A stretch of 10,708 bases of DNA from a virus (Duplodnaviria; Heunggongvirae; Uroviricota; Caudoviricetes). Position 1 is the first letter of the stretch. Each line of letters starts with the position of its first letter. The DNA lies in IMG/VR virus record IMGVR_UViG_2690316105_000022. One strand, 5' to 3'. The translations under genes and the position numbers were made by a program. The notes below the pieces were generated by a model. It saw only the letters and a program-made list of their open reading frames with translations. It was not told the origin of the DNA and did no database searches. Below, piece by piece: positions 2,420-10,708 of the stretch.

Positions 2420-2725
2420 ATGAGCGAACCAAAATTTGGTGAAAAATTTTACAAGCACAACGTACGGATCACGATTCTGCAAATAAGCGCAGCTACACCA
2501 GGCTGGTGGGTTGAAACAGACGAAGGATCCTCACCCGTGGCATCATGGGCGCTTTGTGCGCTTAGTTACCCTGACAGCGATGTGTATCAGGATATTCTTC
2601 CTGTGATATCCACTGACAAAGGCATGAAACCCGTAGACATCAAAAACATGGGTTTTCAGTGCGTAATGCTCACTGAAAAAATGATGGAAGAGATGAAAAA
2701 GAACAACGCCGGATCGCTTCACTGA
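2420..2725 (+). CDS. Hypothetical protein; possibly the 3' remnant of a gene interrupted by the IS66 insertion
   Basis: The open frame runs without stops from inside the IS across the IS end to a TGA at 2723-2725, 9 nt before the SSB-like start. The first ATG outside the IS is at 2420, only 3 nt from the IS terminus, with no own ribosome-binding site. No family recognised. Confidence 0.35.
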   Translation: MSEPKFGEKFYKHNVRITILQISAATPGWWVETDEGSSPVASWALCALSYPDSDVYQDILPVISTDKGMKPVDIKNMGFQCVMLTEKMMEEMKKNNAGSLH

Positions 2726-2734
2726 GGTGGCAAT

Positions 2735-3145
2735 ATGACAGCACAAATTGCAGCTTACGGGCGGCTGGTGGACGACCCGCAGGTAAAACAGACCAGCAAG
2801 GGCACACCGATGACGCTGGCGCGTATGGCGGTATCGTTGCCATGCAGTCAGGCGCAGGACGGGCAGGCTACGTTATGGCTGTCGGTCCTGGCATTTGGCA
2901 AACAGGCCGACCAACTGGCAGGACATGAGAAAGGCAACGTAATCAGCGTATCCGGCGTGATGCAGGTCAGTCAGTGGACAGGACAGGACGGGGGGACGCG
3001 TCAGGGTTATCAGATTATTGCCGACAGCGTAATCAGTGCGAAAACGGTGAGACCAGGCGGCAGCAGACGCAAAACCACAGGCACACAGGGTAATCAGCCA
3101 CCAGCGGGAGGCGATGACCCTTACGGTGATGATATTCCGTTCTGA
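2735..3145 (+). CDS. ssb: Single-stranded DNA-binding protein (SSB-like)
   Basis: 136-aa ORF whose pattern (G.L..DP.V....G......A....W..V..FGK.A....KG..V...G.....WT.Q.G..R) aligns by eye to the E. coli SSB OB-fold, followed by a Gly/Pro/Gln-rich linker and a C-terminal acidic tip DDPYGDDIPF resembling the canonical SSB DDDIPF tail. RBS GAGGTGG lies 5-11 nt upstream of the ATG. Confidence 0.8.
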   Translation: MTAQIAAYGRLVDDPQVKQTSKGTPMTLARMAVSLPCSQAQDGQATLWLSVLAFGKQADQLAGHEKGNVISVSGVMQVSQWTGQDGGTRQGYQIIADSVISAKTVRPGGSRRKTTGTQGNQPPAGGDDPYGDDIPF

Positions 3146-3155
3146 GGGGGTGACG

Positions 3156-3428
3156 ATGGTACATGACCGCATAGCGGAAGAACTCGAAGCGAAAGGATTT
3201 TACCGGAGGGCGGCGGCGCGATGGGGTGAAGTTATGATGCTGGTGGAGACAGACAAGGAACGGCATCACATCACGATGCGACGGCTGGAATGTTCCAGGA
3301 AGGCACAGAGGCCACCGGAGACGGCGGATAATTACGGAGACCTGAAAAAGGCAGTCGATCGCACTTATGCCGAAATGGGGATAGATGGCGCTGGTGATGA
3401 AATATGGCGCAATTACCAGGACAGCTAA
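3156..3428 (+). CDS. Small transcriptional regulator, PerC-family-like (assignment from motif memory)
   Basis: 90-aa ORF starting MVHDRIAEELEAKGFYRRAAARW, resembling the A.ELE..GLWRRAA.RW signature I recall for PerC/Pch-type activators. RBS GAGGGGG is 6 nt upstream of the ATG at 3156; the start region overlaps the ssb stop. Followed by a terminator. Confidence 0.5.
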   Translation: MVHDRIAEELEAKGFYRRAAARWGEVMMLVETDKERHHITMRRLECSRKAQRPPETADNYGDLKKAVDRTYAEMGIDGAGDEIWRNYQDS

Positions 3429-3434
3429 TCACAC

Positions 3435-3458
3435 AGCCGGAGAAATCCGGCTTTTTTT
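3435..3458 (+). terminator. Rho-independent terminator after the PerC-like gene
   Basis: Perfect 7-bp stem AGCCGGA / TCCGGCT with GAAA tetraloop, followed by TTTTTT. Confidence 0.7.
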
Positions 3459-3553
3459 GCGCCAGTTGAAACGGTATGGCGCATTACCGGCTTTTCGTCA
3501 CGGTCCGGCATAGTTACTATCTGAAACAAACAGACACAACAGAGGAAAAAACA

Positions 3554-3778
3554 ATGCCGATGAAATTTGATGAGATATTAAAACAGCGTGATAAATACCA
3601 TGCTGACAACATGGAGACGATGAACATCAATGATTACCGCGCATTCCTGGAAACGGGCGCGCTAATCGAAAAGGATCGGCATGGATTTGTCAGATGTGCG
3701 CTATCCGGTGAAATGCTGGCAGTAAATCCTGAACAGATAGATGCATTGATAGAATTTCTGAAAGGGATCAGGGACTGA
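3554..3778 (+). CDS. Hypothetical small protein (74 aa), insulated cassette
   Basis: ORF starting MPMKFDEILKQ with a good RBS AGAGGA 7 nt upstream of the ATG at 3554. The 5' extension back to 3476 given by the ORF track is unlikely because it starts right after the preceding terminator. No recognisable family. Confidence 0.6.
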   Translation: MPMKFDEILKQRDKYHADNMETMNINDYRAFLETGALIEKDRHGFVRCALSGEMLAVNPEQIDALIEFLKGIRD

Positions 3779-3788
3779 GCACCCATAC

Positions 3789-3820
3789 AGCCGGAGCAAT
3801 CCGGCTTTTTGTTATTTTTT
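3789..3820 (+). terminator. Rho-independent terminator after the small ORF, near-duplicate of the terminator at 3435
   Basis: Stem AGCCGGA / TCCGGCT with GCAA tetraloop, followed by TTTTTGTTATTTTTT. The core ACAGCCGGAG[A/C]AATCCGGCTTTTT is shared with the terminator at 3431-3457. Confidence 0.7.
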
Positions 3821-3829
3821 GTAAATTAT

Positions 3830-3877
3830 TTGTTCGTGGTTGTTCCACGTTGTTCACTGAGCGGATCGGCATATTTT
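3830..3877 (+). promoter_or_regulatory. Phased TTGTTC triple direct repeat with possible sigma70-like promoter for the capsid operon
   Basis: TTGTTC occurs at 3830, 3840 and 3850, exactly 10 bp apart (TTGTTCgtggTTGTTCcacgTTGTTCactg). The third copy could serve as a -35 element, with TATTTT at 3872-3877 as a -10 after a 16-nt spacer. No transcription start data. Confidence 0.3.
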
Positions 3878-3931
3878 ACCCGAACTGAATCATGATTATT
3901 CTCGCCAGTGGTGCCAGGACGCTGGGGCCAC

Positions 3932-3979
3932 TTTCCCGCCTGTTAATGTGCTCACCAATATTCATTACCAGGCGGGAAA
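3932..3979. repeat. Long imperfect palindrome (17-bp arms, 14-nt spacer) in the capsid leader
   Basis: Left arm TTTCCCGCCTGTTAATG (3932-3948) and right arm CATTACCAGGCGGGAAA (3963-3979) are reverse complements with one mismatch. Confidence 0.6.
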
Positions 3980-4032
3980 ACGATCGGTGCGATTGCTGAT
4001 TTCCTTATGAAAAACGGTTGAGTTTTTACCGC

Positions 4033-4070
4033 GTCCTGGAGTTCCTTACTTAACCCCAGGACTTTTTTTT
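4033..4070 (+). terminator. Terminator-like hairpin plus T8 tract immediately abutting the capsid start codon
   Basis: Stem GTCCTGG (4033-4039) / CCAGGAC (4056-4062) with a 16-nt loop, followed by TTTTTTTT (4063-4070); the capsid ATG begins at 4071. The loop is long for an efficient intrinsic terminator, so function is uncertain. Confidence 0.4.
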
Positions 4071-5228
4071 ATGCCGAGAATAATCGAATTACGCCAGCAG
4101 AAAACCGCCATTAAAAATCAGATGCGCGACATGCTGGAGAACGCGGAAAAAGAAAACCGCAGCCTTAACGATGCAGAGGGCGCAAAATTTGACGAATTAC
4201 GCGCTAAAGCTGAATCCCTCGATAAAGACATTTCCCGCCTTGAAGCCATTGCAGACGAAGAGCGCAGCAAGCCAGGTAAAAGCAGCCAGACCACTGACCA
4301 GGCAGAACTCCGAAACTACATCCTGACAGGTGAAACCCGTGCATTAAGTACAGGTGTCCCCGCTGATGGTGGTTATACCGTTATCCCTGAACTGAACACC
4401 GAAATCATGCGAATACTGGCGGATGAGTCCACCATGCGCCGCATCTGTACCGTGAAAAAAATCAGCAGCAACGAGTTTAAGCAGCTTGTTTCCGCTGGCG
4501 GTGCGACCGTTAACCTCGGTGAAGAGGGTAAGGCACGCGAACAGACCAGCACCCCGCAGATTAACGAGGTGAGCATCAAGCTGTATCCGGTCTATGCGTA
4601 CCCGCGCACCACGCAGGAAATCGTGGATTTTTCCGATGTGGACATCCTTTCATGGCTGACGGGCGAGATTGGCGACACCTTCACGGAAACCGAAGAAAGC
4701 GATCTGGTTGTGGGCGACGGTGACAAAAAAGCAAAAGGCTTTTTATCCGTACCCCGTGCAGAGAAGAACGACAAAGAACGTGATTTTGGTACGTTGCAGG
4801 TAATTAAGCCTTCTGAGTCTCTTGCGTGGACATCTGCGGACCCGCTGATCGATCTGAAATTTGCATTACGTAAAAAATACCGCAAGAACGCGGTATGGGT
4901 GGTTAACTCCACGACGGCGGCAAAACTCCAGAAGGTGAAGAATGCGAACGGGGATTATATATGGCGTGACCGTTTACAGGCGGGTGATCCTGACACATTG
5001 CTGGGCCTTCCGGTCGAATATCTGGAGTTTATGCCGGATAACGTTATTGCCCTGGGTGACTTCAAACGCGGTTACTACATTGTTGATCACGAAACGGGTG
5101 TTCGCACCAGACCGGACAACCTGACAGAACCAGGATTCATCAAAATTTTCACGCAGAAATATTTAGGCGGTGGCGTGGTGGATTCGAACGCGATCAAGAT
5201 TCTGGAACTGCCACAGGACGACGATTAA
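4071..5228 (+). CDS. Major capsid protein, HK97-fold family, with N-terminal coiled-coil (delta/scaffolding-like) domain
   Basis: 385-aa ORF. The first ~70 residues are a charged, coiled-coil-like region (ELRQQKTAIKNQMRDMLENAEKENRSLNDAEGAKFDELRAKAESLDKDISRLEAIADEE) typical of HK97-type delta domains; the remainder has the size and motif feel of HK97-family capsid proteins. Sits directly upstream of a prohead protease and portal. Confidence 0.88.
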   Translation: MPRIIELRQQKTAIKNQMRDMLENAEKENRSLNDAEGAKFDELRAKAESLDKDISRLEAIADEERSKPGKSSQTTDQAELRNYILTGETRALSTGVPADGGYTVIPELNTEIMRILADESTMRRICTVKKISSNEFKQLVSAGGATVNLGEEGKAREQTSTPQINEVSIKLYPVYAYPRTTQEIVDFSDVDILSWLTGEIGDTFTETEESDLVVGDGDKKAKGFLSVPRAEKNDKERDFGTLQVIKPSESLAWTSADPLIDLKFALRKKYRKNAVWVVNSTTAAKLQKVKNANGDYIWRDRLQAGDPDTLLGLPVEYLEFMPDNVIALGDFKRGYYIVDHETGVRTRPDNLTEPGFIKIFTQKYLGGGVVDSNAIKILELPQDDD

Positions 5229-5238
5229 CAGCATACAG

Positions 5239-5269
5239 AAGGGGCTAAAAAGCCCCTTTAGTGTTTTAT
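5239..5269 (+). terminator. Hairpin with interrupted T tract after the capsid gene (possible partial terminator)
   Basis: 8-bp stem AAGGGGCT / AGCCCCTT with AAAA loop (5239-5258), followed by TAGTGTTTT. Confidence 0.45.
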
Positions 5270-5283
5270 GGGTGAAAAAAATT

Positions 5284-5841
5284 ATGAAGAGTATGGAAAT
5301 CCGGTCATCGGAAATCACCACCAGCGCCAGCAACACGCTGACGGGTTACGTTGTTCGCTGGAATAACCTTTCTGATCTGCTATGGGGTGAGTTTTACGAA
5401 AAATTTCAGCGGGGGGCGTTTACTGAGTGGCTTGCGGCGGGTAATGACGTTCGCGGCCTGTATGAGCATGACCACAGCATGTTACTGGGGCGCACCCGTT
5501 CCGGATCGCTGAAACTGGAAGAGGACGACACAGGGTTACGCTTTGAACTGACGCCACCGGATACCAGTACAGGGCGGGACGTTATCGAACTGGTTAAGCG
5601 TGGTGATATATCCGGCATGAGCTTTGGCTTTCGTTCCCGTAAGGATGTATGGGATACCACAACAGATCCATGCGTGCGCACTGTGCTGGTTGCGGAACTG
5701 TACGAAATTACCGTCACATCCGTACCGGCTTACCCTGATTCCGGCGTGGAGCTGGCCCGCCGTTCCCTGTACGAGCAGCACCCCGAAAAAATGCCGCGTG
5801 CGGATAATCGCCGCTGGTGGGCGGATTTAGCGGGGGTGTGA
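5284..5841 (+). CDS. Prohead maturation protease, HK97 family (S78/U35-like)
   Basis: The ORF contains LTGYVVRWN...GAF...DVRGLYEHDHSMLLGRTRSGSLKLEEDDTGLRFEL..P.T..GRDVIELVKRGDISGMSFGFR...TVPAYPDSGVEL, closely resembling HK97-type prohead protease motifs as I recall them. Start chosen at the ATG at 5284, downstream of the capsid stop; the track's 5170 start would overlap the capsid gene. Confidence 0.82.
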   Translation: MKSMEIRSSEITTSASNTLTGYVVRWNNLSDLLWGEFYEKFQRGAFTEWLAAGNDVRGLYEHDHSMLLGRTRSGSLKLEEDDTGLRFELTPPDTSTGRDVIELVKRGDISGMSFGFRSRKDVWDTTTDPCVRTVLVAELYEITVTSVPAYPDSGVELARRSLYEQHPEKMPRADNRRWWADLAGV

Positions 5842-5842
5842 T

Positions 5843-7054
5843 ATGTGGCCTTTCAGAAGAAAAAAAGAGCAGCGCAGCATGACGCTTGATGAATTTATGG
5901 CGCTGGCTGGCACATCGAACACGGGGGCGGGTGAGTACGTATCATCGGGGACAGCGGAATCACTCCCCGCCGTCATGAACGCCGTCACGGTCATCTCTGA
6001 GGCGGTGGCTACTATGCCATGCTACCTGTACCTGGTACGCAATGAGAAGGGGAAGGAGGCCCGCGAGTGGCTTGATTCTCATCCGGTCGATCATATCCTC
6101 AACGAGCGCCCGAACGCATGGCAAACCCCCTACCAGTTTAAGCGAATGATGATCCGCCACTGCCTGTTAAACGGTAATGCTTACGCGGTGATTCAGTGGG
6201 GGCGTGATGGTTTTCCGGCGGCTTTACATCCTTACCCGCCGCAGTCGGTGAACGTGGAGCAGACAGGAGAACACAACTGGCGCTATTGCATCACTGACGC
6301 CTACACCGGAAACACCCGCAACTATTTACCGTGGGAAGTACTTCACCTTCGTTACTCCACGGATGACGGCTTTATGGGGCGCTCACCTGTAACCATCTGC
6401 CGCGAATCGCTGGGGCTTGGGCTGGCCCAACAACGCCACGGCGCGAGCGTGATGCGTGATGGCATGATGGCGGCAGGGGTTATCACGTCAGGCGAATGGC
6501 TGGACGGCGTGAAGGGCAAACAGGCATTAGCCGCACTGGAACGCTATAAAGGGGCCAAAAACGCCGGAAAAACGCCCATCCTTGAAGGGGGCATGAGTTA
6601 CCAGCAGCTGGGCATGAGTAACCAGGACGCCGAATGGCTGGCCTCCCGTCGCTTCACCATTGAAGACATCGCCCGAATGTTCAACGTCTCGCCGATTTTT
6701 CTGCAGGAATACAGCAACAGCACCTACAGCAATTTCAGCGAGGCAAGCCGCGCATTTCTCACCATGACGATGCGCCCGTGGCTGGCGAACTTTGAGCAGC
6801 AGATAAAAAACGCCTTGCTGGTGGTCTCGCCTGTACCTGGTATCCGGTATCAGGTGGAGTTTGACAGCGCGGACCTGTTACGGGCCACACCTGGCGAACG
6901 CTTTGCCACCTATGAGCGAGGCATCAAATCCGGTGTTATGTGCCCGAACGAAGCCCGCGAACGAGAAGGGTTGTCTCCGCGTGATGGTGGTGATGAGTTC
7001 AGCCAGGCATGGAAACAGGAAGTAAAAATCAGCGAGGGAGAAAAACCGGAATGA
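5843..7054 (+). CDS. Portal protein, HK97 family
   Basis: 403-aa ORF of portal size and character lying between the protease and head-completion genes. RBS-like GGGGG is 6 nt upstream; the start is 2 nt after the protease stop. Confidence 0.85.
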   Translation: MWPFRRKKEQRSMTLDEFMALAGTSNTGAGEYVSSGTAESLPAVMNAVTVISEAVATMPCYLYLVRNEKGKEAREWLDSHPVDHILNERPNAWQTPYQFKRMMIRHCLLNGNAYAVIQWGRDGFPAALHPYPPQSVNVEQTGEHNWRYCITDAYTGNTRNYLPWEVLHLRYSTDDGFMGRSPVTICRESLGLGLAQQRHGASVMRDGMMAAGVITSGEWLDGVKGKQALAALERYKGAKNAGKTPILEGGMSYQQLGMSNQDAEWLASRRFTIEDIARMFNVSPIFLQEYSNSTYSNFSEASRAFLTMTMRPWLANFEQQIKNALLVVSPVPGIRYQVEFDSADLLRATPGERFATYERGIKSGVMCPNEAREREGLSPRDGGDEFSQAWKQEVKISEGEKPE

Positions 7055-7389
7055 ACATAGGGCGACTGCGTGACAGGGTAACGATTCAGACCCTGAAACA
7101 GACCAGAGCCATGACGGGCGAAATACTCGAAACGTGGGAGGACGGTCACACACTCTGGGCAAGCGTGAACATGGTCAGCAGCAAGGAGTCCATTTCATCG
7201 GGTGCAGAGCTGGCGATTGGTACCGTAAGGATCTGGATACGGTACCGGAAGGACATTAACGCCACCAGCCGGATAAAGGTCAATACGGGGCCGCTGGCGG
7301 GGCGTGTACTGAATATCATCGGGCAGCCGCTGCCGGATGCCGCCAGGACACGCCTTGAAATTCTTTGTCGTGAGGGCGCGGAAAAATGA
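7051..7389 (+). CDS. Head-tail adaptor / head closure protein (Phage_H_T_join-like)
   Basis: 112-aa ORF starting MNIGRLRDRVTIQ with W...LWASV and IWIRYRKDI...RI motifs typical of head closure proteins. The ATG at 7051 overlaps the portal stop (ATGA), suggesting translational coupling. Confidence 0.7.
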   Translation: MNIGRLRDRVTIQTLKQTRAMTGEILETWEDGHTLWASVNMVSSKESISSGAELAIGTVRIWIRYRKDINATSRIKVNTGPLAGRVLNIIGQPLPDAARTRLEILCREGAEK

Positions 7390-7682
7390 CAGAAGAACTT
7401 ATCACCCTGGAAGAAGTGAAACTCCATTGCCGCATCGATGGCGACGAGGAAGACCAGTTAATCAGCGGATACATTGCCGCATCGCTTGAGGCGTGCCAGA
7501 TACACATAGGCAGGCGCTTTGATGACGGGCTGGAGTTCACGCCAGCCATAAAGATTGGCTGCATGATGTTTATCGCTCACCTGTATGAGAATCGCCAGAT
7601 TGTCGCGGATAACGCAAAAACACACGTACCCATGACGATTGGCGCACTCTGGACGGCTTACCGTGATGTGGGGGTGTACTGA
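7386..7682 (+). CDS. gp6-like head-tail connector protein
   Basis: 98-aa ORF starting MTEELITLEEVKLHCRIDGDEEDQLISGYIAASLEA, matching the I.LEE.K.HLRID.D.ED.LI...I.AA pattern of gp6-like connector proteins. Start overlaps the preceding stop (ATGA). Confidence 0.7.
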   Translation: MTEELITLEEVKLHCRIDGDEEDQLISGYIAASLEACQIHIGRRFDDGLEFTPAIKIGCMMFIAHLYENRQIVADNAKTHVPMTIGALWTAYRDVGVY

Positions 7683-8122
7683 TGCCGTGGCAACCATTAA
7701 GACGATGTACAGAACCAGGCTGCAACAGGCGCGTGAAGTCCGGCAAGTGTGAGGAGCACAGACGCAGCGCACGCCAGCAGCAGGACAGCCGGAGAGGCAG
7801 CAGCAGGGAGCGAGGGTATACGAGGCAGTGGGAGAAATACCGCGCCATGTATCTGAGTAAAAACCCGTTATGTGCGCATTGCCTGGAAAAAGGAATATAC
7901 ACGCCCGCCGTGGTGGTGGATCACATTATCCCAATCGATGGCGGTAATGATGTTCTCTTCTGGCCTGAGTGGAATCATCAGCCATTGTGCCAGGCGTGTC
8001 ATAACCAGAAAACGAAATGGCTTGATCCGTCCACAAAAAACAAGCGTGCTGCGGGTGGATTCCGTGAGGAGGAAGAACGGGCCGCTAACCGCAATAACTG
8101 GATGTATGGCGCTGATGAATGA
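7682..8122 (+). CDS. HNH endonuclease (terminase-associated type)
   Basis: 146-aa ORF with paired Cys motifs (CTEPGC, CAHC, CQAC) and an HNH core VDHIIPIDGGND...WNHQPLCQACHNQKT, located immediately upstream of terS/terL. Start overlaps the preceding stop (TGATG). Confidence 0.88.
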   Translation: MPWQPLRRCTEPGCNRRVKSGKCEEHRRSARQQQDSRRGSSRERGYTRQWEKYRAMYLSKNPLCAHCLEKGIYTPAVVVDHIIPIDGGNDVLFWPEWNHQPLCQACHNQKTKWLDPSTKNKRAAGGFREEEERAANRNNWMYGADE

Positions 8123-8288
8123 GCGGGAACAAAACCGCCTTATCCGTGGACTTATAAGGCAGCGTGACGCATGGAAGGCACAGGAAACAGGGCATAAAGA
8201 TAAAGCATCAGGACGCGCAGAACGCATCACAGCGACGCGATTAAACGACCGTGACCGCGAGGTTATGGAATGTTTCCGCAATCGCTGA
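8115..8288 (+). CDS. Hypothetical small basic protein (57 aa), uncertain
   Basis: ATG at 8115 overlaps the HNH stop (ATGAATGA) and the ORF runs to a TGA at 8286-8288; an alternative ATG lies at 8106. It fills the otherwise non-coding gap between HNH and the GC-rich intergenic region. No strong RBS and no recognisable family. Confidence 0.3.
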   Translation: MNEREQNRLIRGLIRQRDAWKAQETGHKDKASGRAERITATRLNDRDREVMECFRNR

Positions 8289-8411
8289 TGAGGCAGCCGG
8301 ACGGGGTGGGGGGAGTTTTCAGGACGAACCCGACCCCGCCCAGAACCGAACGCCTCCCCAAATTTTTATGCACGGTAATTTTTTGAAAAATAATCTGGCG
8401 AAAAAATAAGC
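8289..8411. other. Candidate cos / packaging-recognition region upstream of terS
   Basis: GC-rich block with G-runs and complementary C-runs (CGGGGTGGGGGGAG at 8302-8315; CCCGACCCCGCCC at 8329-8341; CGCCTCCCC at 8351-8359), followed by an AT-rich segment (AAATTTTTATGCACGGTAATTTTTTGAAAAATAATCTGGCGAAAAAATAAG) ending at the terS start. Position between HNH and terS is where cos sites sit in HK97-like cos phages. Confidence 0.3.
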
Positions 8412-8768
8412 ATGGCAAGACCACCGAAAGCCCCCGCCTACCTGGATGATATCGCCGTGAAGCAGTGGCGGGAAAAATCGCGGCAGCTTGCGGAACGGGG
8501 AGACCTGACCCCTGCCGACTGGAGTAATCTGGAACTGTATTGCGTCAATTACTCGATATACAGGAAAGCCGTCGCAGACCTTGCGGCGCGCGGGTTCAGC
8601 ATTGTTAACAGTCAGGGCGGAGAGAGCAGAAACCCCGCATTAAGCGCGAAATCCGACGCGGAAAGAGTGATGATAAAAATGGCCTCTTTGCTCGGTTTTG
8701 ACCCGATAAGCCGCCGTAAAAATCCACCGGAAACAGAAGAAGAGGACGAGCTTGACCGCCTGGAATAA
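8412..8768 (+). CDS. terS: Terminase small subunit, P27 family-like
   Basis: 118-aa ORF with the L..YC..Y......A.......G......G.......NP pattern and a C-terminal acidic tail, consistent with P27-family small terminases. Lies directly upstream of, and overlapping, the large terminase gene. Confidence 0.8.
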   Translation: MARPPKAPAYLDDIAVKQWREKSRQLAERGDLTPADWSNLELYCVNYSIYRKAVADLAARGFSIVNSQGGESRNPALSAKSDAERVMIKMASLLGFDPISRRKNPPETEEEDELDRLE

Positions 8769-10413
8769 GTACGCAGAAGACGTAAAAACGGGCAAAATTC
8801 CGGCCTGTAAACGGCTGAAACAGGCCGTTAAACGGTACTTTTCGGACCTTGAAAACCCCCTTTACATGTTCGATCGTGAGGTTGTTGAGCGGTTTATTGC
8901 CTTTCCCAGGGTGTGCCCGCACGTAAAAGGGCCGATGCGTGGAAGACCCATTGAGCTGGAACCGTGGCAGCAGTTTGCCTTTGCGTGCATCCTCGGCTTT
9001 AAGGTTAAGGCCACCGGAAGGCGCAAATACACGAGCGCCTTTATCGAAGTGCCGCGCAAAAATGCGAAATCCACGACAGCCGCGATTCTGGCTAACTGGT
9101 TTCTGATTATGGAGAACGGGCAGCAGGATATTTACACCGCAGCGGTGAGCCGCGACCAGGCGCGGATCGTTTTTGATGATGCGCGTCAGATGTGCCTTTT
9201 ATCCCGACCGTTACGCAAGAGAGTGAATATTCAGGCCCACAAGGTGATGCACCCGAAAAGCAACAGCCTGTTAAAGCCGCTGGCAGCAAAAGCGGCAACC
9301 ATCGAGGGTACTAACCCCAGCCTTGCCATTGTGGACGAATACCACTTACACCCCGATAACGGCGTTTATTCTGCGCTTGAACTGGGGATGGGGGCACGTC
9401 CCGAAGGGCTGTTATTTGCCATTACCACATCAGGCAGCAACGTCGTTTCAGCCTGTAAACAGCACTATGATTATTGCTGCCAGATCCTGGACGGCGAAGA
9501 GGTCAACGATTCAATTTTTGTACTGATTTACGAACTGGACGACGAAAACGAGGTTGATGATCCGGAGATGTGGATAAAGGCGAACCCTAATATTGATGTT
9601 TCCGTGGATCGTGAAAAACTGGCCTCAACCATCCAGAAAGCGCGGGGCATACCGTCGCAATGGGTGGAGATGATGACAAAGCGATTTAATATCTGGTGTC
9701 AGGGGGCTACCCCGTGGATGGGTAACGGAGCATGGGCTGAGTGCGCCGGAAAGTTCACGGAGGAAGATTTACACGGTCAGGAATGTTACGCGGGGCTGGA
9801 TTTATCATCCACAAGCGACATTTCCAGCGTGTGCTATGCCTTTCCGGTCGGTAAAAATATCATGCTGGTTTCCCGTCATTATCTGCCGGAGTTCCAGTTA
9901 CAGAACCCAGCCAATAAAAATCGCGCTATCTATCGCCAGTGGGCACGGGCGGGATGGATACGCACAACGCCAGGGGACTGCATTGATTACGACCGGATAC
10001 GTGATGACATCATGCAGGACGCGGAAAAATTTAATATCAGGCTGGTGGGCTTCGATACGTGGAACGCAACGCATCTCAGGACGCAATTACAGGGGGCAGG
10101 CTTTGAGGTGGAGCCGTTCCCGCAAACCTACCTTCGATTCAGTCCGGCGGCGAAATCGTTCGAAGTTTTTGTTAACCGCAGGGTTATCGTGCATCGTGGT
10201 GATCCGGTGTTGTCCTGGTCGATGAGTAACGTCGTGATGCAGAGTGACGCGAACGCCAATATCAAGCCGAACAAGAAAAAATCACCGAACAAGATAGACC
10301 CGAGCGTGGCGGCACTGATGGCGTTTGGTACATTCCAGGCAGAGCATGAGGATTTTGCTTTTGATATAAGCGACAGCCACCGCCAAAAACTGGAAGAATT
10401 TAGCGGGGTGTAA
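8752..10413 (+). CDS. terL: Terminase large subunit (ATPase plus nuclease)
   Basis: 553-aa ORF with a Walker A-like motif (VPRKNAKSTTAAI), a Walker B-like LAIVDEYH segment and a C-terminal nuclease-like region. Overlaps the terS 3' end by 17 nt. Confidence 0.9.
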   Translation: MTAWNKYAEDVKTGKIPACKRLKQAVKRYFSDLENPLYMFDREVVERFIAFPRVCPHVKGPMRGRPIELEPWQQFAFACILGFKVKATGRRKYTSAFIEVPRKNAKSTTAAILANWFLIMENGQQDIYTAAVSRDQARIVFDDARQMCLLSRPLRKRVNIQAHKVMHPKSNSLLKPLAAKAATIEGTNPSLAIVDEYHLHPDNGVYSALELGMGARPEGLLFAITTSGSNVVSACKQHYDYCCQILDGEEVNDSIFVLIYELDDENEVDDPEMWIKANPNIDVSVDREKLASTIQKARGIPSQWVEMMTKRFNIWCQGATPWMGNGAWAECAGKFTEEDLHGQECYAGLDLSSTSDISSVCYAFPVGKNIMLVSRHYLPEFQLQNPANKNRAIYRQWARAGWIRTTPGDCIDYDRIRDDIMQDAEKFNIRLVGFDTWNATHLRTQLQGAGFEVEPFPQTYLRFSPAAKSFEVFVNRRVIVHRGDPVLSWSMSNVVMQSDANANIKPNKKKSPNKIDPSVAALMAFGTFQAEHEDFAFDISDSHRQKLEEFSGV

Positions 10414-10426
10414 TGAGGTCAGCAGC

Positions 10427-10708
10427 ATGACAGAAGCCGAAATACTGCGATTAATCCGCCGCGTCTCTGGAATCAGCCAGCAGCATGACGAACAGGCCAC
10501 GCAGCCGGACAGCGTGACCGCCGAAAATTATGCGCGTGTTGTTGCTGAGGTGATGCGCCGTGATGGTATCCAGCTTAATGATGTGGATATGCGCAACATA
10601 CGGATCCGCGTTCTTGAAATGCTGGCCTACCGTCGCCGCGTGCAGACGTACAGGGAAAAAGCAAAAATTACGTACCACTGGAAGAAGCCGGAGCGGTTAC
10701 GGCGGTAA
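10427..10708 (+). CDS. Hypothetical protein (93 aa), basic C-terminus
   Basis: ORF with RBS GAGGT 7 nt upstream of the ATG at 10427, beginning 13 nt after the terL stop; the stop codon coincides with the last three bases of the window. No recognisable family. Confidence 0.55.
   Translation: MTEAEILRLIRRVSGISQQHDEQATQPDSVTAENYARVVAEVMRRDGIQLNDVDMRNIRIRVLEMLAYRRRVQTYREKAKITYHWKKPERLRR

Follow-up and report, generated by a model that had tools for sequence, protein, structure and literature searches.

Why should a long and almost perfect palindrome lie directly in front of a capsid gene? The question is raised by IMG/VR virus record IMGVR_UViG_2690316105_000022 (Caudoviricetes), whose 10,708 nucleotides (nt) were analysed as a whole and are called the window below. 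The palindrome, referred to here as hairpin P2, occupies positions 3932-3979 on the + strand, upstream of the major capsid protein gene. The original prediction, made from the letters of the window, had placed three answers side by side: a dimeric protein-binding operator, a hairpin in the leader RNA, and a recombination or packaging signal. Our results indicate that the capsid-sense transcript contains P2 as an RNA hairpin under selection, with a structure that is conserved and a sequence that is not. The best explanation as a whole, to which we assign a probability of about 0.5, is that this hairpin forms part of a structured cis-regulatory capsid leader that acts as a switch. The window itself belongs to a phage satellite of the capsid-forming kind. 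Over positions 2724-10708 it shares 94.8% identity with the island that lies between roxA and phoQ in E. coli O157:H7 EDL933, and this island is EcCIEDL933, the prototype of those phage-inducible chromosomal islands that form capsids (cf-PICIs) (bioRxiv 10.1101/2022.09.08.507074).

A repeat search located the two arms of the palindrome at 3932-3948 (TTTCCCGCCTGTTAATG) and 3963-3979 (CATTACCAGGCGGGAAA). They are 17 nt each, complementary at 16/17 positions (94%) and separated by a spacer of 14 nt, precisely where the original prediction had put them, and the sole mismatch is T3943 opposite C3968. When the whole 10.7-kb window was scanned for inverted repeats with arms of at least 17 nt, no more than one mismatch and a spacer of 3-40 nt, the palindrome was the single match. 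Thirty dinucleotide-preserving shuffles of the window contained no such repeat, and by calculation 0.0012 would be expected per window and 3e-5 in the gap that precedes the capsid gene, so the earlier claim that a 16/17 match lies beyond chance is borne out. The length of that gap, previously given as 250 bp, has to be corrected: it runs from 3779 to 4070, between the stop of the upstream open reading frame (ORF; 3778) and the capsid ATG (4071), and measures 292 nt. Folded as RNA, the palindrome forms 11 base pairs (bp), a U·C mismatch, 5 further bp and a 14-nt loop, with a free energy of -22.6 kcal/mol. Folding of the leader had been suggested as a check, and the + strand of the gap proved far more stable than its shuffles (z = -5.35; minus strand, z = -4.08). 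A 10-nt repeat of TTTCCCGCCT at 4231-4240, within the capsid gene, is no more than expected by chance for a 1-kb region.

Leaders of relatives were collected by capsid-protein searches, by a scan for a conserved promoter box, and by scans of IMG/VR and metagenomes with words from P1, the hairpin that precedes P2; an annotated but divergent E. coli island (L184) was added. The sample comprised 279 P1-containing stretches. In 262 of them the capsid start could be recognised, and these amount to 131 different leaders with lengths of 123-170 nt. The 279 loci span E. coli, Shigella, Rosenbergiella, IMG/VR contigs, and gut and other metagenomes, and the structured leader is present in every sampled lineage that bears the conserved box. 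The leaders share a common plan, which consists of the box, phased GTT(C/T) repeats, a -35 element, a -10 element, P1 and P2, then a linker rich in pyrimidines and finally a hairpin whose end lies 4-6 nt before the AUG. The leader of the window's variant was found in 420-444 of 5426 complete E. coli genomes, always in the chromosome, and in these genomes it is in every case followed directly by a gene that is annotated as 'phage major capsid protein'. The phage database contained no real match to the window's leader, and the leader of the other, main clade was found there in three records only, one of them a 16.5-kb satellite-sized 'induced prophage'.

Comparison of these leaders revealed that the pairing of P2 has been maintained while its letters changed. 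P2 directly abuts P1 in the window, and the linker between them measures 0-3 nt across the leaders. The basal arms vary between lineages yet always pair (GGCCGUUUAA/UUAAACGGCC, GGCCGUCAG/CUGACGGCC, GUCCACCCGG/CCGGGUGGAC, GCCGCCUGAC/GUCGGGCGGC and GCCCGCCCC/GGGGCGGGC, with UUUCCCGCCUG/CAGGCGGGAAA in the window). First, RNAalifold applied to a sequence-only MAFFT alignment of 27 whole leaders predicted P1 and the base of P2 unaided, with compensatory changes in 12/18 pairs. Second, in a MAFFT alignment of 30 P1-P2 segments, 9/12 P2 pairs had changed on both sides and 96.4% of the P2 cells were paired; for the whole P1+P2 structure the proportion was 96.0%, compared with 35-51% for slid partners, and it was matched by 0/500 shuffles. 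Third, a covariance model (R1) built from the 30-segment alignment recovered 101 matches, representing 99 distinct sequences, and in the covariance-model alignment of these sequences all 8/8 modelled P2 pairs co-vary, with 97.6% of the cells paired. The C-G pairs at P2 positions 3-4 are almost invariant. A count that needs no alignment gave 45 of 58 distinct 5' arms with a perfect stem of at least 9 bp anchored no more than 3 nt from P1, compared with 3.4% of shuffles. Within E. coli, the common left-arm polymorphism C3935->U converts a C-G pair into U·G, and the disruptive variants of the P2 arms number two, both of them singletons. The comparative alignment that had been proposed as a further check thus revealed compensatory changes in the P2 pairs and free arm sequences, which argues for an RNA structure and not for a protein site.

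The strand on which this structure acts was addressed by a strand test, in which the P2 cells contained 46 G·U against 6 A·C. Because G·U is far above A·C, the pairing of P2 is read as RNA of the capsid-sense strand. In addition, the eight basal P2 pairs enclose a segment whose length differs among family members, from 20 to 47 nt, and the loop measures 9, 14 or 18 nt in the window's own clade; with arms so variably spaced, and with half-sites that are not conserved in sequence, a dimeric operator cannot be accommodated. Homologues thus carry a hairpin in the same place, with differing arms, compensatory changes and G·U tolerated on the capsid-sense strand, and it is very probable that the palindrome is a conserved RNA stem-loop of a cis-acting capsid leader. 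The original prediction was therefore right in one of its options, the leader hairpin, while the operator is not supported and the packaging or recombination signal is unlikely, and the context of the palindrome, namely P1, the promoter and a terminator at the start codon, had been overlooked.

P1 lies at 3908-3931 on the + strand and was defined by folding and alignment. It consists of GUGGUGCCAGGACGCUGGGGCCAC with a GACG loop (-15.6 kcal/mol) in the window's clade and of GUGGCACUCAGACGUGAGCCGCCAC in most lineages. The inner stem is CUCA/UGAG in the main clade and CCAG/CUGG in the window clade, a difference of three compensatory pairs, and the GACG loop never varies. The outer stem co-varies as well, its terminal pair being A-U or G·U in four loci (L375, L389, L369 and L394). 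A scan with the 14-nt 3' motif of the leader returned mostly chance matches and five real leaders, which added covariation in this outer stem. The same two types of P1 were recovered by the box-based scan, in which P1 was not used. A further lineage with a variant P1 (CTCGGAAGCGAGCCGCC) was considered and rejected, as its four IMG/VR matches were all due to chance.

Downstream of P2, the 49-nt linker at 3980-4028 (+ strand) contains small predicted hairpins and an A-tract (GAAAAA) and is poorly conserved beyond the window's clade. It is followed by CCGCGUCCUGG (4029-4039, +), identified through enforced pairing and alignment columns as the 5' arm of a terminator and as the partner of the P1 apex in an alternative helix. 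Repeat search and folding identified this intrinsic terminator, GUCCUGGAGUU/AACCCCAGGAC, at 4033-4070 (+), with 11 pairs, -12.7 kcal/mol and a U8 tract up to the AUG: the hairpin proper covers 4033-4062, and eight U are followed at once by the capsid AUG. A simple terminator scan missed it because of an internal mismatch. The terminator is kept, with G·U or compensatory variants, in the E. coli relatives and in L053, a member of the window clade despite a capsid identity of 69%, which has a U8 terminator at the aligned position. The sole Shine-Dalgarno-like sequence, AGGA at 4058-4061, falls within the 3' arm of the terminator hairpin and is likely a weak ribosome-binding site hidden in that hairpin. 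In the main clade, an invariant CUGGUUUCACGUC opens a hairpin, P3 (GGUUUC...GAAACC), which ends just before the AUG and holds the only Shine-Dalgarno-like GGA or GAG there. Such a swap of a terminator for a translational hairpin behind a constant P1-P2 would correspond to the pattern of known leader RNAs and riboswitches.

P1 and this downstream platform are complementary to each other. In the window, CCAGGACGC[U]GG (3914-3925), which comprises the apex and 3' strand of P1, can pair with CCGCGUCCUGG over 11 bp with one bulge. The corresponding partners in the main clade are AGACGUGAGCCG and UGG[U]UUCACGUCU, and the complementarity between P1 and the platform amounts to 11-12 bp across both clades. 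In alignment A1, 96.8% of the cells in the eight core columns of this alternative helix are paired, compared with 20-58% for slid partners, and three pairs have changed on both sides between the clades. Two mutually exclusive folds therefore exist: P1 and the terminator or P3 are both closed in one, and the long-range helix forms in the other. Locus L192 contains, at 5204-5400, a second copy of the leader that has decayed and precedes a broken capsid 5' end (ATG TAA ...), 1.1 kb upstream of the intact leader, and this arrangement looks like a recombination scar. In the decayed copy P1 reads CUCG-GAAG-CGAG and the 3' motif reads UUUCGCGUC, with matched changes: U15->C is accompanied by A10->G in the P1 partner and by A132->G in the alternative partner.

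The leader is preceded by a predicted sigma-70-type promoter, which was recognised by conservation and consists of a -35 element TTTACC (3875-3880), a 16-nt spacer and a -10 element TATTCT (3897-3902) on the + strand. Among 118 distinct upstream sequences, TAT.TT is 90-100% conserved at -11, -10, -9, -7 and -6 relative to the first base of P1, with -8 variable, and TTT at -33..-31 reaches 97-99% conservation, with A (53%) and then C (80%) after it. As these hexamers keep a fixed distance from P1, the start of transcription is predicted on nt 1-3 of P1. A simple consensus scan did not call the capsid promoter at 3875-3902. Upstream of the -35 element, a direct-repeat search revealed the box TTTTGTAAATTATT followed by three copies of TTGTTC at 10-bp spacing (3817-3856, +). 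The box is kept among otherwise divergent cf-PICI leaders and lies at the corresponding place in L003, L053 and L184 and in many IMG/VR loci, and across cf-PICI lineages the GTT(C/T) repeats that follow it are phased at 10-11 bp and run into the -35 element. Their spacing suggests a probable activator-binding array on one face of the helix. In the Rosenbergiella-type lineage (L003, L088 and related loci), a terminator-like hairpin (CCCCTGTCTCTGACGGGGG + TTTTCTTT) replaces the -35 element ~20-50 nt upstream of P1, so the promoter architecture differs there.

Taken together, these elements suggest how the leader might work. P1 would stand at the predicted start of the message, followed by P2 and then by an expression-platform hairpin with a weak ribosome-binding site. 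By default, P1 would fold first and the platform hairpin would then form, so that transcription would end at 4063-4070 or the AUG would be inaccessible. If P1 were opened or captured, its apex and 3' strand would pair with 4029-4039, the polymerase would enter the capsid gene, and the ribosome site would be exposed. The alternative helix would enclose P2 and abolish the terminator or P3. P2 itself would serve as a stable, fast-folding clamp that holds the competing strands close and, together with P1, structures the 5' end of the message; most likely, P2 would thereby help to decide whether the capsid mRNA is finished and translated. In this detailed form, as a terminator/anti-terminator and ribosome-site switch, the proposal is tentative, and we place its chances somewhat below even. 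A bolder version, in which P1-P2 and the platform constitute a new class of cis-acting RNA switch that ties the capsid output of the satellite to a signal provided by the helper phage or by the infected cell, seems rather unlikely. In that version the signal could be a factor that opens P1; alternatively, P1-P2 could bind RNA polymerase in the manner of the put RNAs of phage HK022 and give it terminator resistance.

Several points weigh against such a switch. First, no sensor was found, whether a leader peptide, a ligand pocket, or a known protein or tRNA, and a pocket for a small molecule is unlikely, given that P2 is unconserved in its distal part. Second, the start of transcription, termination and read-through are all computational predictions. 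Third, nearest-neighbour energies make the fold with P1 and the terminator or P3 more stable than the alternative helix by 6-9 kcal/mol, and the covariation of that helix comes from one clade split and one decayed copy. Fourth, the main clade has no terminator in its leader, as P3 has no U-run, and a Xenorhabdus capsid relative (L004, 67% identity) has no leader altogether. Fifth, the invariance of P1 is partly a product of sampling, two of the scans having used the exact P1 word, and recognition by a protein or by the polymerase would explain the invariance of P1 and of its partner motif equally well. A leader peptide was also considered as a candidate in its own right, given that many lineages have an ATG located 16 nt upstream of P1 and in frame with a UGA that falls within P1. 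It was rejected: the ATG is missing in L144, L152 and L180 and overlaps the -10 hexamer.

Among the alternatives to a switch, the one that fares best assumes that P1 and P2 form nothing but a protective 5' end, which would block RNase E and RppH and keep the capsid mRNA alive long enough for the production of hundreds of subunits. Stem-loops at the 5' end are established stabilisers of E. coli mRNAs, ompA being one example. Transcription is predicted to begin on the first nucleotides of P1, the sequence of P2 would be free provided that its pairing holds, and a conserved GC-rich hairpin after the capsid gene means that the message is bracketed by structure at both ends. However, one 5'-terminal hairpin would suffice for this purpose and P2 is not 5'-terminal, and neither the near-invariant P1 with its GACG loop, nor the downstream motif complementary to P1, nor the terminator before the AUG would be explained. 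We regard protection as the sole function as an improbable account.

Less likely still is that P1 and the base of P2 serve as the target of a specific RNA-binding protein that the satellite, the helper or the host encodes and that sets capsid expression. Such a protein could, for example, hold P1 closed (off) or capture one of its strands (on), and it would then be compatible with the switch and could be its trigger. In favour of this possibility, P1 including its loop is more conserved in sequence than the capsid protein itself, which is 67-73% identical to that of the window in L003 and L004, the C-G pairs at P2 positions 3-4 are near-invariant, and either a ProQ/FinO-family gene or a conserved small protein is encoded just upstream of the leader in some islands. 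The former was seen in L184, a cf-PICI of E. coli O169:H41, where a gene for a ProQ/FinO-family RNA-binding protein (6191-6721) lies two genes upstream of the capsid leader. The latter is a conserved protein of 74-86 aa (phrog_1957), encoded directly upstream in the window, L053, L184, L232, L070 and L003; a confident model of it (pLDDT 92.7) had no match among solved folds.

The chances are also low, and slightly lower again, that P1-P2 is a put-like RNA, one that attaches to RNA polymerase during transcription and confers resistance to terminators and pauses, which would carry the enzyme across the leader terminator, the hairpin after the capsid gene and the remainder of the 6.6-kb operon. 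Like putL, the leader has two adjoining stem-loops, 75-95 nt in total, right after the predicted start; the region of their junction is conserved and the tip of P2 is variable, and a terminator lies ~100 nt downstream in the window's clade, with a terminator-like hairpin after the capsid gene. However, model R1 had no match in the HK022 put region at E <= 10, P1 is much shorter than put stem I, and the main clade has no leader terminator to be overcome. Moreover, constitutive antitermination would nullify the post-capsid attenuator, and the complementarity between P1 and the terminator arm would be left unexplained.

A function of the palindrome in DNA, as a dimeric-protein operator, a cos or pac site, a recombination site or a hairpin for single-strand replication, is very improbable. 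A 16/17 inverted repeat in an intergenic region is what such a signal would look like, and symmetric protein sites can co-vary on both arms. Against this stand the arm spacing and the unconserved arm sequence described above, and the excess of G·U over A·C is a strand asymmetry foreign to double-stranded DNA sites. A hairpin in single-stranded + strand DNA is much less plausible than RNA, although the tolerance of G·T would be compatible with it. Regarding packaging, an HK97-type cos site adjoins terS (in HK97 itself it lies 50 nt upstream), and the palindrome is 4.4 kb upstream of terS. The gap between the HNH-side ORF and terS (8288-8412), which has a G-rich and then a C-rich stretch (GGACGGGGTGGGGGGAG ... 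CCCGACCCCGCCC) followed by AT-rich sequence, is by synteny with HK97 most probably the cos site of the window, and a recombination or packaging role for the palindrome is correspondingly unlikely. The HK97 cos junction showed no DNA similarity to the leader or to the gap upstream of terS. Finally, it is equally improbable that the terminated transcript of ~160 nt (P1, P2 and terminator, ending at 4063-4070) is a trans-acting small RNA of the window's lineage, directed for example at the helper phage: the layout of a promoter, a ~160-nt structured RNA and a strong terminator is that of a small-RNA gene, but P1-P2 is kept without a terminator in most lineages, so the shared function cannot rest on a terminated RNA, and complementarity to a target was not found, no search aimed at it having been made.

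The remaining features of the window place the leader within the satellite. cf-PICIs are recently described elements that cross species by building their own capsids and stealing phage tails. An IS66-family set occupies 1-2336 on the minus strand, with a 512-aa transposase (1-1539), a middle ORF (1588-1935) and an HTH_Tnp_1 ORF (1932-2336). This set lies outside the homology to EcCIEDL933, which begins only at 2724, so the replication-side region of this island is unlike that of the prototype and bears an insertion sequence. Between the IS66 set and the capsid gene, the window encodes SSB, a homologue of PerC-family transcriptional activators (3114-3428, +; PF06069, E = 6e-43) and a small protein without assigned function. 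PerC-type proteins are regulators of the LEE pathogenicity island in pathogenic E. coli. The small gene ends with an intrinsic terminator found by the terminator scan (AGCCGGAGCAATCCGGCT + T-run, 3789-3811, +), which, from its position, would insulate the capsid promoter from upstream transcription. Near-identical intrinsic terminators (AGCCGGAG[A/C]AATCCGGCT + T-run) at 3435-3452 and 3789-3806 follow the PerC-family gene and the next small gene, and this pairing makes each accessory gene look like a separately insulated cassette.

The capsid gene (4071-5228, +) encodes a major capsid protein of the HK97 fold (PF05065, E = 3e-61; also by the EDL933 annotation) and is the first gene of a capsid and packaging operon. 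It is followed on the + strand by genes for a prohead protease, portal, head-closure and adaptor proteins, an HNH endonuclease, and the small and large terminase subunits. The terminator scan also revealed a GC-rich hairpin with a T-run at 5238-5259 (+), directly after the capsid stop and before the protease gene. A hairpin of other sequence occupies the same position in L184, L003 and L053, giving four lineages with the window. It is probably an attenuator or a 3' stabiliser that sets a high ratio of capsid to protease and portal.

Database and literature searches bear on the novelty of the leader. Rfam 15 gave no match in the window at E <= 1 and none covering the leader in L003, L184, L088 or L091. 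In the cf-PICI papers searched, no promoter, terminator or leader was described for the packaging operon, and our literature searches brought up neither a mapped start site nor a small RNA nor any account of how the capsid/packaging operon is regulated. A structured leader with alternative pairings is a known kind of element; the P1-P2 family and its host element context are not described in the resources searched, and the leader is probably a new cis-regulatory RNA. Its covariation is of textbook quality, and the alignment is a ready seed for a new RNA family. The leader also offers a testable handle on how and when a satellite turns on capsid production. If the switch model is true, it would represent a compact natural module for the control of a terminator and a ribosome site. 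If a new class of switch were involved, the PICI life cycle would gain its first described RNA-based control point, which would explain how a complete capsid operon stays silent until induction.

Comparison with known systems helps to define what kind of leader this is. The put RNA of HK022 has a promoter-proximal architecture of two hairpins, with putL just downstream of PL (PMC9378689). Both putL and putR were located in HK022 through an inverted repeat. Like P1-P2, they are cis-acting pairs of adjacent stem-loops of ~70-90 nt, close to a promoter and upstream of terminators in an enterobacterial mobile element. P1 (24 nt) and P2 (48 nt) are contiguous from the predicted +1, and the resemblance is architectural only: homology was detected neither by eye nor by model R1 (E <= 10). 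In addition, P1 is a short 9-bp hairpin with no sign of the stem I triplex or bulged loop of put, P1-P2 precedes the late (capsid) operon of a satellite whereas put lies behind early phage promoters, and the P1-P2 leader is complementary to a downstream terminator arm, a pairing that put does not need.

Late-gene antitermination provides a second comparison. P. aeruginosa AlpA bypasses terminators laid out before the first late gene (PMC7969949, PMC9371919). The layout of lambdoid Q and P. aeruginosa AlpA systems recurs in the window's clade, where a promoter and a leader of ~160 nt are followed by an intrinsic terminator abutting the first gene of the late operon. Unlike in those systems, P1 contains no conserved -10-like pause element, GACGCT being found in the window clade only and GACGUG in the main clade. 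The AlpA of the satellite (62 aa, PF05930) was considered as an antiterminator of the P. aeruginosa AlpA type and rejected, since among solved structures it did not match the Q-like P. aeruginosa AlpA, and the shared name is a coincidence. With stabilisers of the ompA type, the leader shares a message that starts with a hairpin, P1 at the predicted +1. This likeness concerns P1 and not P2, and it leaves the conserved loop and the platform complementarity unexplained. In the satellite P4, the CI RNA and the seqA-seqC leader likewise belong to a phage satellite and have mutually complementary leader segments that govern premature termination. They differ in that P4 uses them in its immunity region and not before a capsid operon, and there is no evidence of processing here. 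C4 antisense RNA, which we take to be the Rfam family holding P4 CI RNA, had no match to the leader.

A further parallel in design is with attenuators and riboswitch platforms, although the central P2 of the leader is variable in sequence and size and a sensor was not found. A terminator between the promoter and the first gene, as in an attenuator, is present in the window clade only; exclusive pairing with the 5' arm of the terminator was found (11 bp, 96.8% of cells), on thin support. As in these systems, a hairpin that hides the ribosome site or terminates transcription stands before the first gene, and an upstream segment is complementary to its 5' arm. As in riboswitches, the platform differs between lineages, with a terminator in one and a translational hairpin in the others, while the upstream domain remains constant.

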